Shown here in pieces: positions 9,001 to 14,166 of a stretch of 14,166 bases of DNA. A program made the position numbers. Each line of letters starts with the position of its first letter. Within the stretch, counting starts at the first letter, position 1. Source of the stretch: a virus. The stretch lies in the UHGV virus genome UHGV-1666497, one strand, 5' to 3'.

Positions 9001-12000
9001 CCCGACCATCGTGTCGGGCTTTTTTTTACTGGAGTCTGTATGGCTTTTTCAGATGAGCAGCGCCCTGAAGCGCAATTGGGTAACCAGAACCGCAGCAGCC
9101 TGAACATTAAGCAGCCGGGAGAAAATTACTGGCAGGATTTTTTCAGCAACCCGCAGAATGCCATTGATCACAGCACATCGTTCAGCCTCGGTGATGTATT
9201 GCCAACAATGGGTAAAGGTTTCGCCCAGTCCGTCCGGGGAACAGGGGAGATGGTCCGTGGACTCGGTGATGGATTTGTAAATAATCCTGTAAAAACGCTT
9301 GCCGGGTTGTCGTCTTTCATGACGGATGTTTACATGCCGCCTTCCTCCACGCAAAAGGAACTGGGCGCGCCACCTTCTGTTGGAGATGCGATTAAAAACA
9401 TTCCCGATGGAACAGGTAAAAACGCGGTCACTGATACTGTCGGTGAAGGTCTGAAAGCAACCGGTAAGGCAGTCAGTGATGGTGCCAAAGCCTCGGATGA
9501 ATGGCTGACAGATCAGATGTCGCCGGGTGCTGTTCGTGCGCTGAACACGCCAATGAGTGAAGGCTATGATGATTCTGCGGTCTTGCTGACGAAGGGTGTA
9601 AACCTGATTGGTGCGCTTGTACCTGATCTGGTTGCTGGCGGTGTGGTTAGAAAGGTGGGACAGGTCGCACTGAAAAGAACGCTGACCGCCGGGCTGGAGA
9701 AAAAATACATCGCGGCAGGAGTGCAGCCGGAAAGAGCCACGGCACTGGCAGCAGAAGCTGTCGATAAAAAAATGACGGATTTCTTCCATGCGGGCCTGAT
9801 CACCCATTCCACAGCCAGTGCACAGGGGCAGAGTGCAATGTCGGCAGCAGATGCTGTTCTTAATGCGGATTACGCTGAGCTGGCGCAGTCACCGAAATTT
9901 CAGCAGACGTTTTTGTCAATTGATGCAGATCCACAGCACGCACAGCTTACTGATCGCCAGAAAATGGACCTGGCAAAAGAGCGTGTTGCCGATGAGGTGC
10001 GCGCGCAGCTGGCAACCGATCCTGAATTGCTGGCTGTGAATGCCATGGCGGCAAAACTGGGTGACGCACAACTGTTTAATCTGGTGACACGAGGCACAGC
10101 GAAGACCGTTAAAAGCGGCATTGTCAGAAATGCCACGGAACAGGGCGTAATTAACGGGGCACAGAACGCCTATTCGCGCTATCAGGAAAACACGGCATTG
10201 CGTGAGACCGCCGGAATGGATGTGTCACCGTGGGAGGGCGTGGCTGACGCAACGATCGAAGGTGCAGCCTTTGGTGCTGCGATGGGGGCTCCATTCGGTG
10301 CGGTTGCCGGATATCGTGGCAGACGTCAGGCCGCAGAAGAAGCAGCCATGCGTGATGCTGAAACCGTGCAGCAGGACGACGCAGCCCCGCAACCCGAACC
10401 GGTTGATCCGGTGGCACAGCATCGTGAATCCATGCAGGGCATGAATCGCGAGCAGCTTCTGGAACAGTATGCTGATGCGGATATGGCAACAGAGGGTGAC
10501 GCATCCGCAGCTCATCGCCGGGAAGCTGCCAGCCAGTTGTTGAATGAACTGGACGAACAGGCGAAGCGACAGGCTGTGATGAATGAGCTGAAGGCGAAGC
10601 CGCGTTCTGAACTGCTTGAGGAATACCGCAGACTCAGCCAGAAAGAGGAGCGCACCGAGACTGAAGAACAACAGTTTCAGGCAATACGAGAAGTCATTCG
10701 CCCACAACAGGAAGTGACGCCGGAGGCACAGCCACAACCAGAGAGTGTGGATGATGGTAACGGGAGCATTTACCCGACGGTGCGCTTCCGGGACCCGAAT
10801 GAAGTCCGCATTGAAATTAACGGGAATGGTGCGTCCAGACCAGCGGAACGCATTGAAAAGGTGCGCCCGGATAACCGTTATTTCACGGATGAGAAAACTG
10901 CCATGGGGAGTGATGTTTTCCGTAATGCCGCCGCCACCGGCCTGAAACCGTCCGTAGTGAAGAAAGGCGAGAATCAGTATGCCGTTGAAATGGATAATCC
11001 TGCGTTCTCTGAAGATGTGGCAACGGAAACCATTAACACCCTGGCTGACGGAGAGCGTATTGCTGATGCTGACCCGATGGAACAGCCCGCGTTCATGCGT
11101 GACCCGCGATTCCGTGGTTTTACGGGGGATGATACAGAAGTGCAGGCCCGTCTTGCCCGTGGCAACGCGCCGACGGCGGAAGAACTGGTGCGTTTCCAGA
11201 TGGCTGAAGGTGATGCCGGTCCGACAGCACAGGAGTTAACTGAGCGTCCACGCCTTCCCGCTCCCGGCGATATTCATCCCGGACAGGGATATCCGTTACC
11301 GGGAGAAGTGGCGCGTACGCCGGATGAAAATCAGGCCGGACGTGGTGGTCGTTTTACCACAACCGGTGAGGTGAAGGGCCAGAGTTTCCAGAAAGGACGT
11401 GCGCAGGCTCCGGAAAATGCCGCTGGTCGCCAGGGGGAAATACTGGAGGGCGAATCGGTTCGTCGTGGTCTGCCGTCACCGGATGAGCAGAACGCCACAG
11501 CACCAGTGCGTGAAGGACTTCCTGCACCTGAACAGCGTGGGGTTGATATGCCACATCCTGAATCACTCCCTCGTATGGTTCGTGACTCTCTTCCGGAACT
11601 GGCACAGCAGGCAGAAGCACGCAGACAGACCGGGGATAATCGCCAGACCATAACCGATGTTCCGGATACTGAGGTGCCGGTGCCGGTAGATAAACCGAGC
11701 ACTCACCAGCAGGCGCGTGGTGCAAAAATTGAAGACTTTGGTGAGGAGATTAAGGGCGCGGCAAAACACCGTTATGCACAGCTTGCCGAAACACTGGGTA
11801 AAACGCTGGAAGACAGGGATTATTTCACGCAGCCGCTGAGCAAAGTGTTCCCGAAACCGGACTATGCAAAACTGGCGAACGAAGGGGCCGACGCTGACAC
11901 ACTGGCAATGATTGCGCTGTACCGCAGTGATATTCCCGCGAAAACGAAACTCAATGCGGTGAAGTGGGTGGAGAGTGTAAAGAGCATCCGCACAAGCGTG

Positions 12001-14166
12001 GCGGGAATGCTGGAAGGAAAAGTGACTGCCGGACGGCTTGCTGAGTGGATGGAGGGAAGAATGCCTTCCCGTTATGCGGATACCTGGCAACTGTTACGCA
12101 CGCTGCCACCTTCACAGATGGACAAGGCTTCTGCTTATCGGGTGGTATCCGGTGTGTATCAGGCGGCCGGAGGGAAGCGTTACGATCCGCCACAGAAACT
12201 TTATTCACTGCGCAATAAGGACAATAAGGGGAGTAACCTCTTTTTCTCGGAAAGCAGGGATGAATTACTGACAAAGGCGAAAGCCTGGTTTGCAGAGCAG
12301 GAGGAAAAGTCACGGGCGAAAGGTGATGAAAAAACAGCACCGTCACCAGATGACAAAATCAGCTTTGACGTTTACCGGAATACCCGCAGTGGCGATATTT
12401 TTATCGCTTATGGCAAAAACAAAATGCGGGTGAGAGGTGGCTTTAAGTCAGCCAGTGATGCGCGTAAGTACATTGATTCACATCGTGATGAGCTTGTTCG
12501 TCATGTGAAGGAGATGCGGGAGATTTCGCGTGAGGAGCAGCGTAACGCCACTAACCGCGACCGCACCGGACCAGAACGCCGCAAAGAGGATGTTTCGCCG
12601 GAGCAGTTCAGTGATGCGTTTGGTTTCCGTGGTGTGCAGTTTGGTAATTATGTGGAAGGTCCGCGTCGTCAGGCTGATTTGAACCGGGCTTATGACTCGC
12701 TGCATGACCTTGCTGAAGTACTGAATGTACCGACAAAAGCGCTTTCCCTGAACGGTCGTCTTGGCCTGGCATTTGGTGCCCGTGGTAAGGGTAAGGCGGC
12801 AGCACACTATGAGCCGGGTGAGGTGGCAATCAACCTGACAAAAGGTAACGGACCGGGTGCGCTGGCGCACGAATGGTTCCATTCACTGGATAATTATTTT
12901 GGTCGTTATGATGTTTCCACTGACGGGAAGATTACGTCAGGTGGTGACTTTATGACGGAAGCCAGGCGTGTTAAGCGCGTATTTAAAGACGGCAGGTTTG
13001 TTGACGCTGAATATCCGGTGCGTCAGGAGGTTTACGACGCGTTTAAAGGTGTCATTGAGGCCATTAAAAACAGTGACATGCCGCGTCGTTCAGCTCTTCT
13101 CGATGAGGTGCGCTCAAAACCGTACTGGTCAACGGATGTTGAAATGGCGGCACGTGCCTTTGAGCGTTATGTTCAGGATAAGGCGCGTACGGCTGGCGTG
13201 GAGAATGATTATCTGGTCAATATCCGTAAGGCACCTGAGCACAACACAGATAACACCTACGCTTATCCGACGAATGCGGAACTGGATGGTGGCATTCGTG
13301 AGGCATTCGATCACCTGTTCCGCACCCTGAAAACCCGTGAGACGGACAAGGGCGTTGCGTTTTATTCCCGTAAGGGCGTGACCCGCACACCTGAAGGCAA
13401 TCTCATTTCGGATGTTAACCGCAGTGCGGAAGCCAAAGGCAGCCCGGTCCCGCAGGTTGAAGCGGTTGCCCGTGGCGTGATTAGTGGCATTAAGGACAGT
13501 GACCTGAAGGTCCGCGTGGTGAAGTCACAGAAAGAGGCTGAAGCACTGGCGGGTGAATCATTCGACGGTTACGGCAAGGTGCACGCGTTCTATCGTCCGG
13601 ATAAACGTGAAATTGTCCTGGTGGCGGATAACATCCCTGACGGGCGGACCGTACGCGAGAAGTTGCGTCACGAGATTATCCACCATGCCATGGAGCATGT
13701 TGTCACGCCAGCGGAATATCAGACGATCATCAAAACCGTGCTGAAAACCCGCGACAGTGATAACGCCACCATCCGTGAAGCCTGGCGTAAGGTTGATGCG
13801 TCCTATGGTAAGGAATCACCGGAAGTGCAGGCGGGTGAATTTCTGGCACATATGGCGGAGAAACAGCCGAATAAATTCGTGGCGGCATGGGAGCGTGTTG
13901 TTGCCCTGGTCAAAGGGGTACTGCGTCGTACGGGGTTACTGAAGCCGACGGAACTGAACGATATCAGACTTGTTCGCGAGACCATCCGTACGTTAGGCCA
14001 GCGTGTGCGGGAAGGTTACACGCCGCGTGAGGATGGCGCGGGCGCATCGTCTCAGTACTCCCGTAGTGGTAAACCTGATTGTCACGAACGGTGCAATAGT
14101 GATCCACACCCAACGCCTGAAATCAGATCCAGGGGGTAATCTGCTCTCCTGATTCAGGAGAGTTTA

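Follow-up and report, generated by a model that had tools for sequence, protein, structure and literature searches.

A giant polyvalent virion protein gene interrupted by IS100 and carrying two predicted zincin domains, in a prophage of human-gut E. coli

What might a protein of 1,699 residues with two separate HExxH sites do for a phage, and is that size its own? The question is raised by the window, the whole stretch of 14,166 nucleotides of UHGV virus genome UHGV-1666497 that was analysed here, in which an ATG-to-stop reading frame of 1,699 aa runs from 9040 to 14139 on the + strand, as an earlier note had claimed. It is very probable that this frame is an IS100-disrupted copy of the gene for the giant polyvalent virion protein of podophages of the 933W/Sp5/phi24B type (Sepvirinae), residing in a prophage of human-gut E. 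coli. The intact product would be an internal protein, ejected from the particle, and would most likely be processed by its own zincins. Published work already covers the protein family, shows that it is essential and present in virions, and describes both metallopeptidase clades.

A late phage gene that ends in an insertion sequence

By homology the reading frame is the orthologue of Sp5 ORF80/ECs1242, identical with VT2-Sakai orf71, and of phi24B gp47. Residues 1-1680 are 89% identical in amino acid sequence to VT2-Sakai orf71, 195 Stx-type phage records match the ORF by megablast at 93-97% nucleotide identity, and the phrog_616 profile (2793 positions) is covered from position 1 to 1690. 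As in the orthologues, the giant gene follows lom and genes of phrog_610, 611, 596, 594 and 601; the window genes upstream also include matches to phrog_511 (internal virion protein), to a tail fibre and to Lom, the neighbourhood is a late/structural region syntenic with the late region of VT2-Sakai, and the remaining late genes of the window are full length. The features needed to place the gene are as follows.

2387-3655: separate tail-fibre gene (phrog_496, Pfam Phage_Tail_Tip)
9000..9027, + strand: predicted terminator-like GC hairpin (7-pair stem, 6 GC pairs) with a T8 run
9040..14079, + strand: giant polyvalent virion protein gene, codons 1-1680, about 60% of the intact gene
14080..14166, + strand: terminal 87 nt of IS100 (IS21 family), with istA oriented on the + strand

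The hairpin and T8 run end 12 nt 5' of the start codon, with a GGAG ribosome-binding site in between; an Rfam scan of the window at gathering thresholds returned no match.

The earlier note described a giant protein of 1,699 aa, but this is not its natural size. Intact orthologues have 2,789-2,811 aa, and in all 195 phage records homology ends at query base 5040, which is window position 14079. Window positions 14077-14166 match, at 100% identity, IS100 ends that adjoin annotated istA on many plasmids, and a sister contig (L004) runs on into the start of istA (ATGGTCACTTTTGAG...), the order expected of IS100. The junction is ambiguous by 3 nt, as 14077-14079 fit the gene and the IS-bearing plasmids alike. 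Because phage homology stops at 14079 and IS100 follows, positions 14080-14139 are read as 19 IS-encoded codons and a stop, residues 1681-1699 being CHERCNSDPHPTPEIRSRG. As judged from this junction, the frame is an IS100-disrupted allele and its length a truncation artefact. All junction contigs end inside the IS100 repeat, placing the other IS end and the target-site duplication beyond the contig.

It might be asked whether the shortened product of 1,699 aa still functions and is kept for its two proteases, rather than being a decaying pseudogene. LPD5 and both zincin domains are whole upstream of the junction, a second contig with 10 differing positions has the identical junction, and the other late genes are full length, all of which would suit such an isoform. 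However, the protein is essential and loses 40% of its length after codon 1680, some 1,110 residues that include MuF_C and the phage-specific domain LPD38. Neither 5,426 complete E. coli genomes nor species-representative genomes contain the exact junction, which was recovered solely by exact-protein look-up in gut metagenome contigs, and other cryptic copies have decayed too, as with a frameshift in strain G1/2. We therefore consider a maintained isoform distinctly improbable. Since infectious Sp5 particles require the intact gene, a prophage with the IS100 allele is most likely defective in making infectious particles.

Two predicted zincin domains in a polyvalent architecture

The segment upstream of the junction is laid out as follows, with residue numbers those of the window protein.

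10252..10335, + strand: glycine-zipper-like hydrophobic segment, aa 405-432, EGAAFGAAMGAPFGAVAGY (sub-threshold Pfam Gly-zipper matches, E 0.5)
10540..11739, + strand: polar, charged, Pro/Glu/Gln-rich stretch by composition, aa about 501-900
12169..12618, + strand: LPD5 domain, aa 1044-1193 (Pfam PF18799, E 1e-43)
12562..13338, + strand: zincin domain 1, a CLCA_X-type metallopeptidase, aa about 1175-1433
12868..12891, + strand: motif 1, HEWFHSLD (H1277, E1278, H1281, D1284, each conserved in 49/50)
13099-13338, + strand: Pfam LPD1, aa 1354-1433, inside the zincin 1 span
13141..13143, + strand: E1368, candidate third metal ligand of zincin 1 (50/50 conserved)
13432..14064, + strand: zincin domain 2, aa about 1465-1675, a domain without a Pfam model, lying whole on the 5' side of the IS junction
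13669..13686, + strand: motif 2, HEIIHH (H1544, E1545, H1548, H1549), readable as HExxH or HExxxH
13837..13860, + strand: Glu-helix of zincin 2, E1600-E1607 (family consensus AEEVFAxxAE)

In the window copy Pfam recognises LPD5 and LPD1, to which the intact orthologue adds MuF_C and LPD38; a PDB sequence search with that orthologue gave nothing meaningful. The LPD5 region is predicted with high confidence in the structure model. The hydrophobic segment at aa 405-432, a weak observation, may be a membrane-interacting element, and the stretch at aa about 501-900, with 65-72% polar or charged residues per 100-aa block and no Pfam domain, is probably a disordered linker. In its N-terminal part the intact protein of ~2,800 aa would thus carry a glycine-rich hydrophobic segment, a long polar linker and LPD5, to be followed by zincin 1, zincin 2, MuF_C, a segment of ~600 aa and LPD38. 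The Stx-phage orthologues Sp5 ORF80, VT2-Sakai orf71 and phi24B gp47 have the same LPD5, LPD1 and zincin segments as the window copy, which stops at codon 1680 and lacks the rest. This is a large polypeptide with several effector-type or LPD domains, encoded among virion/late (pro)phage genes, and as such it bears out the likeness to polyvalent proteins that had been suggested for it.

Exactly two HExxH matches occur in the ORF, at aa 1277 (ALAHEWFHSLD) and aa 1544 (LRHEIIHHAMEH), where 0.03 would be expected for such a composition (P of at least two = 0.0003, 20,000 shuffles). The motif residues are 98-100% conserved among relatives at 25-45% identity, and both sites lie inside zincin-fold models. 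On conservation and predicted fold together, the two separate sites that had been pointed out are real and belong to conserved domains of the zincin fold. Aligned by hhalign, zincin 2 and the zincin-1 module showed no significant similarity (probability under 1%), and the two are therefore not a recent duplication.

Zincin 1 has its conserved HExxH on a helix after a mixed beta-sheet in the model. It had been proposed as gluzincin-like, with a Glu about 30 residues downstream, but E1307 is Glu in 11/36 aligned sequences, and the signature is instead that of a CLCA_X-type domain, HExxHxxD with an invariant Glu at +91. The CLCA_X family (Lenart et al. 2013, PLoS One 8:e62272) is mostly phage- or plasmid-borne, often within very long proteins, and shares the HExxH...D signature with zincin 1, although its published consensus is HExxHxxxD whereas the Asp of zincin 1 is the third residue past the second His. 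The CLCA_X model (NCBIfam NF041907) matches zincin 1 over positions 3-245 of 250 with 152.5 bits (E 1.4e-44), which is below the whole-protein cut-off of 260 bits and makes the domain a domain-level relative rather than a curated member. The conserved acidic residues, and with them the candidates for a third metal ligand (a Glu in gluzincins, an Asp in aspzincins), are D1284, D1355, E1368 (50/50) and E1375. E1368 sits where the helix of model residues 327-345 begins, which is the first one in the LPD1 segment, and is the preferred candidate by its conservation rather than by model geometry. Among the closest known folds are the zincins of MtfA, PPEP (M34-like) and anthrax lethal factor, at 6-16% sequence identity and with no sequence-level relationship; zincin 1 departs from them by an insert of ~80 residues that separates its HExxH helix from the helix of the conserved Glu.

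For zincin 2, a word-seeded search gave only close enterobacterial fragments, and an exhaustive search was used instead; the family comprises at least 394 clusters at 50% identity. H1544 is conserved in 98% and E1545 in 99% of members, and HExxxH rather than HExxH is found in 150 of the 158 family instances, HExxHH being confined to the Stx-phage clade. In an ungapped alignment H1549 is 87% and H1548 44% conserved, whereas MAFFT instead places a 1-residue gap at motif 2 in the Stx-phage clade. Most members have a Glu 54-56 residues past HE; E1600 is present in 157/157 and E1607 in 92%, and E1600 is a candidate third ligand, again by conservation and not by model geometry. The HExxH-x3-EH reading of motif 2 has to be given up, as E1552 is 8% and H1553 3% conserved in what is an HExxxH family. 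Nor did a likeness to ImmA/IrrE (M78) or SprT/WLM, for which HExxH-x3-EH or HExxHx5H would be the signature, hold: there is no Pfam match to these, and by fold they rank below lethal-factor-like domains. In 37 members scanned, Pfam assigned no family, with sub-threshold matches including Peptidase_M76 (8/37, best E 0.04) and MATCAP, and a profile search of the PDB with the zincin-2 alignment gave spurious helical matches alone. The HExxxH metallopeptidases named as nearest are DPP III (M49) and the MATCAP/TMCP tubulin carboxypeptidases. M49 dipeptidyl peptidase III itself, defined by HEXXGH and EEXR(K)AE(D) within a two-lobe M49 fold, was rejected for zincin 2.

Both domains find a place in the computational account of polyvalent-protein metallopeptidases by Iyer, Burroughs, Anand, de Souza and Aravind (2017, J Bacteriol 199:e00245-17; PMC5512222), to whose clades we assigned them by the published descriptions. 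As in that account, both sit inside a giant phage protein among virion genes. The phage-type clade has a conserved His ending strand 2 and an Asp three residues past HEXXH, and zincin 1 agrees with H1256 and D1284, each in 49/50. Zincin 2 fits the HEXXXH set, with HExxxH, a downstream conserved Glu, a zincin fold and a polyvalent context; unlike that set, the Stx-phage copies have HExxHH, which fits either spacing.

Of 26 representatives with both zincins, 23 have LPD5, zincin 1 and zincin 2 side by side, 25 representatives have at least two copies of zincin 2, and LPD5 with a zincin also occurs as stand-alone proteins. We tentatively put forward, as a joint reading that is somewhat more doubtful than not, that LPD5-zincin 1-zincin 2 is a conserved cassette by which phage polyvalent proteins are processed, that Pfam 'LPD1', far from being a domain in its own right, corresponds to the Glu-bearing C-terminal helices of a CLCA_X-type zincin, that the HExxxH zincin-2 family is without a Pfam model, and that the peptidase domains of the Stx-phage protein are those between LPD5 and MuF_C, and not MuF_C.

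Virion location and the role of the peptidases

In Sp5, deletion of ORF80 abolishes plaques and lysogenisation while packaging and head morphology are normal, and mutant heads are not bound by anti-tail-fibre antibody, which its authors took to indicate a role in tail assembly and not that of an internal protein (PMC5155283). This phenotype would suit a conventional structural protein, such as a tail fibre or tape measure, in which the HExxH sites are incidental, a possibility that we regard as very remote. Pfam, NCBIfam and PHROGs find no tail-fibre or tape-measure domain in the ORF, the tail-fibre gene is a separate one, and the HExxH sites fall at zincin positions conserved across distant relatives. 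To our knowledge, podophages of the 933W/Sp5/phi24B type have no tape measure.

The product of the phi24B orthologue, gp47, was found in virions by mass spectrometry, does not show up in the symmetric cryo-EM map, and has been proposed as an ejection protein (bioRxiv 10.64898/2026.04.10.717836). This accords with the virion or ejection protein that had been among the earlier suggestions, and the intact protein would lie inside the capsid and be ejected with the DNA. The most likely role of the zincins is self-processing of the polyprotein. The two metallopeptidase domains, with catalytic residues intact, would cut it in cis or in trans, yielding separately acting modules within the capsid or after ejection. 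Self-processing has been suggested for the metallopeptidases of polyvalent proteins, but N4 vRNAP, ArdC and TraC1 have such domains and travel unprocessed (Iyer et al. 2017, PMC5512222), and therefore self-processing is not the rule. The phi24B proteomics text says nothing on gp47 fragments (bioRxiv 10.64898/2026.04.10.717836).

Two other roles for the zincins have to be weighed against self-processing. As host-directed effectors, they would cleave restriction, abortive-infection or other defence proteins after ejection. This is one of the roles considered for polyvalent metallopeptidases by Iyer et al. 2017 (PMC5512222), toxin endopeptidases acting on host proteins, such as anthrax lethal factor and PPEP, are among the best fold matches, and the stand-alone LPD5-zincin proteins are in keeping with it. 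Nevertheless, Sp5 ORF80 is needed even when the laboratory host is permissive, as would be expected of a structural or entry function more than of a conditional anti-defence one, and the tandem zincin-2 repeats interspersed in polyproteins suit processing. On balance, we consider host-directed cleavage unlikely, but a serious competitor.

Wall-degrading activity is common in podophage ejection proteins. The phi24B authors proposed that peptidoglycan is digested to let the ejected protein form a trans-periplasmic conduit, assigning the peptidase to 'MuF-C' (bioRxiv 10.64898/2026.04.10.717836). MuF_C, however, has the PBECR RNase-like fold according to Iyer et al., and the peptidase label in the preprint appears to be on the wrong domain. 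Both HExxH domains resemble zincin-fold endopeptidases of proteins and peptides, no peptidoglycan hydrolase is described among the fold matches listed, and domain scans of the ORF and of the intact orthologue found no lysozyme or transglycosylase domain. Digestion of the wall by the zincins is thus a rather poor prospect.

Self-processing remains the reading that we favour. The truncation, the residue map and the correction of the label leave the kind of system unchanged. We note that the 1,699-aa form comes from an IS-truncated allele and is no natural protein. Phages that spread Shiga toxin genes depend on the intact protein, and a correct map of its sites is useful for the design of mutants: the catalytic-looking residues are H1277, E1278, H1281, D1284 and E1368 in zincin 1, and H1544, E1545, H1548-H1549 and E1600 in zincin 2, with VT2-Sakai orf71 numbered as the window +20. 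If these domains cut gp47/ORF80 at defined sites, this would provide the first experimental handle on the maturation of a giant polyvalent ejection protein.

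The giant gene and its truncation by IS100

The reading frame was described in the earlier note as a 1,699-aa ORF with two HExxH motifs, and a regular-expression scan of its product finds exactly two such matches. With 26 His and 139 Glu among 1,699 residues, 0.03 HExxH matches are expected, and at least two occurred per shuffled sequence at a frequency of 0.0003 (20,000 shuffles). That description is therefore accurate, and the motifs exceed chance.

Features of the giant reading frame and its orthologues
9040-14139, +: giant ORF, ATG to stop, 1,699 aa
Within the N-terminal 1,000 residues: polar, Pro/Glu/Gln-rich stretch, by composition
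aa 405-432 (10252-10335), +: glycine-zipper segment, weak and sub-threshold
aa 1044-1193: LPD5 (Pfam, E 1e-43)
aa 1277: motif 1, ALAHEWFHSLD
aa 1354-1433 (13099-13338): LPD1 (Pfam, E 7e-24)
aa 1544: motif 2, LRHEIIHHAMEH
Residues 1763-1852 of the intact orthologue, beyond the truncation point: MuF_C
Residues 2489-2694 of the intact orthologue, beyond the truncation point: LPD38
Intact gene, VT2-Sakai orf71: 8,421 nt, 2,806 aa
Intact gene, PhiR12_3: 2,789 aa
Intact gene, phi24B gp47: 2,811 aa
Intact gene, Sp5 ORF80/ECs1242: 2,793 aa as annotated

The giant gene is truncated by IS100. In a megablast search of phage genomes, 9040-14166 matched 195 records, nearly all from Stx-converting phages, and every alignment ended at query base 5040 (window 14079). 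Positions 14077-14166 match, at 100% identity, the istA-adjacent end of IS100 (IS21 family) on many enterobacterial plasmids, and because phage homology stops at 14079, it is the insertion sequence that encodes residues 1681-1699 (CHERCNSDPHPTPEIRSRG) and provides the stop codon. The size of 1,699 residues is thus an artefact of the insertion, intact orthologues having 2,789-2,811 aa. Over residues 1-1680 the window copy shares 89% identity with VT2-Sakai orf71, and it covers only positions 1-1690 of the 2,793 in the PHROG profile phrog_616.

The exact 1,699-aa product is present on three human-gut metagenome contigs of ~14 kb each, one being identical to the window over 13,920 nt and another differing at 10 positions and running 38 nt further into IS100, up to the start of istA; the insertion is therefore reproducible. 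These contigs simply break off within the IS100 repeat, and the gene/IS100 junction was found neither in 5,426 complete E. coli genomes nor in species-representative genomes. Window 13700-14079 is also 100% identical to the copy in a cryptic prophage of E. coli G1/2 (NZ_CP060083.1, 9346-17710), where the giant gene has a frameshift and neighbouring genes are disrupted by IS1 or by frameshifts; it is thus not unusual for this gene to decay in resident prophages. The IS100-truncated allele would probably disable the prophage; that the shortened 1,699-aa product, which retains both HExxH motifs, serves as a functional isoform has less support.

Two conserved zincin domains

The truncated frame contains two conserved domains of zincin fold, each with its catalytic signature intact; they have no detectable relationship to one another. 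The first (zincin 1) matches the NCBIfam CLCA_X model at aa 1175-1430 (within 12562-13338; E 1e-44; model positions 3-245 of 250), with a score of 152 bits, under the curated cut-off of 260 bits. Lenart et al. 2013 defined CLCA_X, which has an HExxH...D signature and many phage- and plasmid-borne members, as a sister group to the CLCA N-terminal zincin domain. In an alignment with 49 relatives (32-63% identity), H1256, H1277, E1278, H1281, D1284 and D1355 are each conserved in 49/50 sequences, E1368 in 50/50 and E1375 in 47/50. The gluzincin spacing proposed earlier, with a Glu about 30 residues after motif 1, does not hold for the family: at the position of E1307, only 11 of 36 aligned sequences have Glu. 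E1368 is the likeliest candidate for the third ligand. Since the Pfam LPD1 match lies entirely within the CLCA_X span and holds this invariant residue, LPD1 would appear to be the C-terminal helical portion of the CLCA_X-type zincin rather than a separate domain. Pfam lists LPD1 as a domain of unknown function.

For zincin 2 a word-seeded search returned close relatives only, and an HMMER search run exhaustively over 1.84 billion representatives gave 394 at E<=1e-3, nearly all within proteins of 1,500-6,000 aa and aligned over query residues ~2-210; the whole domain (aa ~1465-1675) therefore lies 5' of the IS100 insertion point. In the ungapped alignment H1544 (98%), E1545 (99%), H1549 (87%), E1600 (157/157) and E1607 (92%) are conserved, H1548 is conserved in only 44% (Gly or Ala otherwise), and E1552 and H1553 are not conserved; MAFFT instead opens a gap of one residue in the clade that includes the window. 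A count made without alignment shows the family pattern to be HExxxH: 150 of 158 instances have this spacing only, the HExxHH that is compatible with both spacings occurs solely in the window and the five relatives closest to it, and the invariant Glu lies 54-56 residues after the site in most members. Motif 2 is accordingly not the HExxH-x3-EH that had been read there, nor is the suggested ImmA/SprT assignment right. No Pfam model exists for this domain, and a PDB profile search gave no meaningful match; among viral models it matches giant phage proteins labelled polyvalent, structural or internal virion proteins.

Of the 26 representatives with both zincins, 23 have LPD5, zincin 1 and zincin 2 side by side; another 25 carry at least two zincin-2 copies. 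Stand-alone proteins of ~330-500 aa that combine LPD5 with a CLCA_X-type zincin are also found in Bacteroidota, Bacillota and Desulfovibrio (for example P0053, Bacteroides salyersiae, 501 aa), which suggests that the pair is a functional unit able to work outside giant proteins. No domain match falls within the first 1,000 residues of the giant protein.

Late-region context

Upstream of the giant ORF, the genes correspond to the Sepvirinae podophage late region and keep the order seen in VT2-Sakai and PhiR12_3; every one is full length.

Upstream features
Internal virion protein gene (phrog_511)
Tail fibre gene (phrog_496; Pfam Phage_Tail_Tip)
Lom gene
Five conserved genes of unknown function
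9000-9027, +: strong terminator-like hairpin, 7-pair stem with 6 GC pairs, T8 tail

The hairpin directly follows the preceding gene, 12 nt 5' of the ATG of the giant ORF. Late transcription, being antiterminated, presumably passes through it, but the hairpin could affect how strongly the giant gene is expressed. A 46-aa ORF for a Hok/Gef-family small toxin (MSQKSLITVTICMTVIFTIWMLHGSLCEFRLNLWGAEFAAFLQCKQ; 5624-5764, +) separates lom from the following late gene; it has a precomputed Pfam HOK_GEF match, and PGAP gives the corresponding annotation at that position in strain G1/2. None of the Sok/hok RNA families passed Rfam's gathering threshold. The small protein encoded at 7391-7681 (+) matches Pfam Gly-zipper_YMGG slightly under the cut-off (E 2e-6). 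Glycine-zipper-like hydrophobic segments in both this protein and the giant protein hint at membrane-active parts of one ejection apparatus.

Published relatives and probable role

Polyvalent proteins and LPD domains were defined by Iyer et al. 2017 (PMC5512222), who describe among metallopeptidases a widespread phage-type clade, recognised by a conserved His that ends strand 2 and by an Asp three positions past HEXXH, and another set in which HEXXXH goes with a bent helix; by description, these fit zincin 1 and zincin 2, respectively. Deletion of Sp5 ORF80 abolishes plaques and lysogenisation, with DNA packaging and head morphology normal (Mondal et al. 2016, PMC5155283). In phi24B, gp47 was detected in virions by mass spectrometry, is not visible in the map, and was proposed to be an ejection protein that degrades peptidoglycan with a "Muf-C metallopeptidase domain" (bioRxiv 10.64898/2026.04.10.717836). 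Virion presence and essentiality are thus shown for orthologues, and the polyvalent or ejection-protein reading of the earlier note was broadly right, given LPD5, LPD1, MuF_C and LPD38 and the published work on gp47.

The giant protein is probably internal and ejected, and its zincin peptidases would most likely cleave this polyprotein into modules. Iyer et al. proposed either polyprotein processing or attack on host proteins for such metallopeptidases, and noted that some carriers travel unprocessed (PMC5512222); host-directed cleavage, anti-defence included, has less support here than self-processing. The same is true of peptidoglycan cleavage by a metallopeptidase, as the phi24B preprint proposes: its label conflicts with the classing of MuF-C by Iyer et al. 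as a PBECR RNase-fold domain (PMC5512222), and both HExxH domains (12562-14064) sit between LPD5 and MuF_C, upstream of the latter. The peptidase label is likely a mislabel. The two zincin domains are absent from the gp47 domain list in that preprint.

The family, its essentiality, its virion presence and both peptidase clades have been published, so the window ORF is a disrupted copy of an already known system. The remaining value lies in a correct residue-level map and in the likely mislabel in the phi24B preprint.
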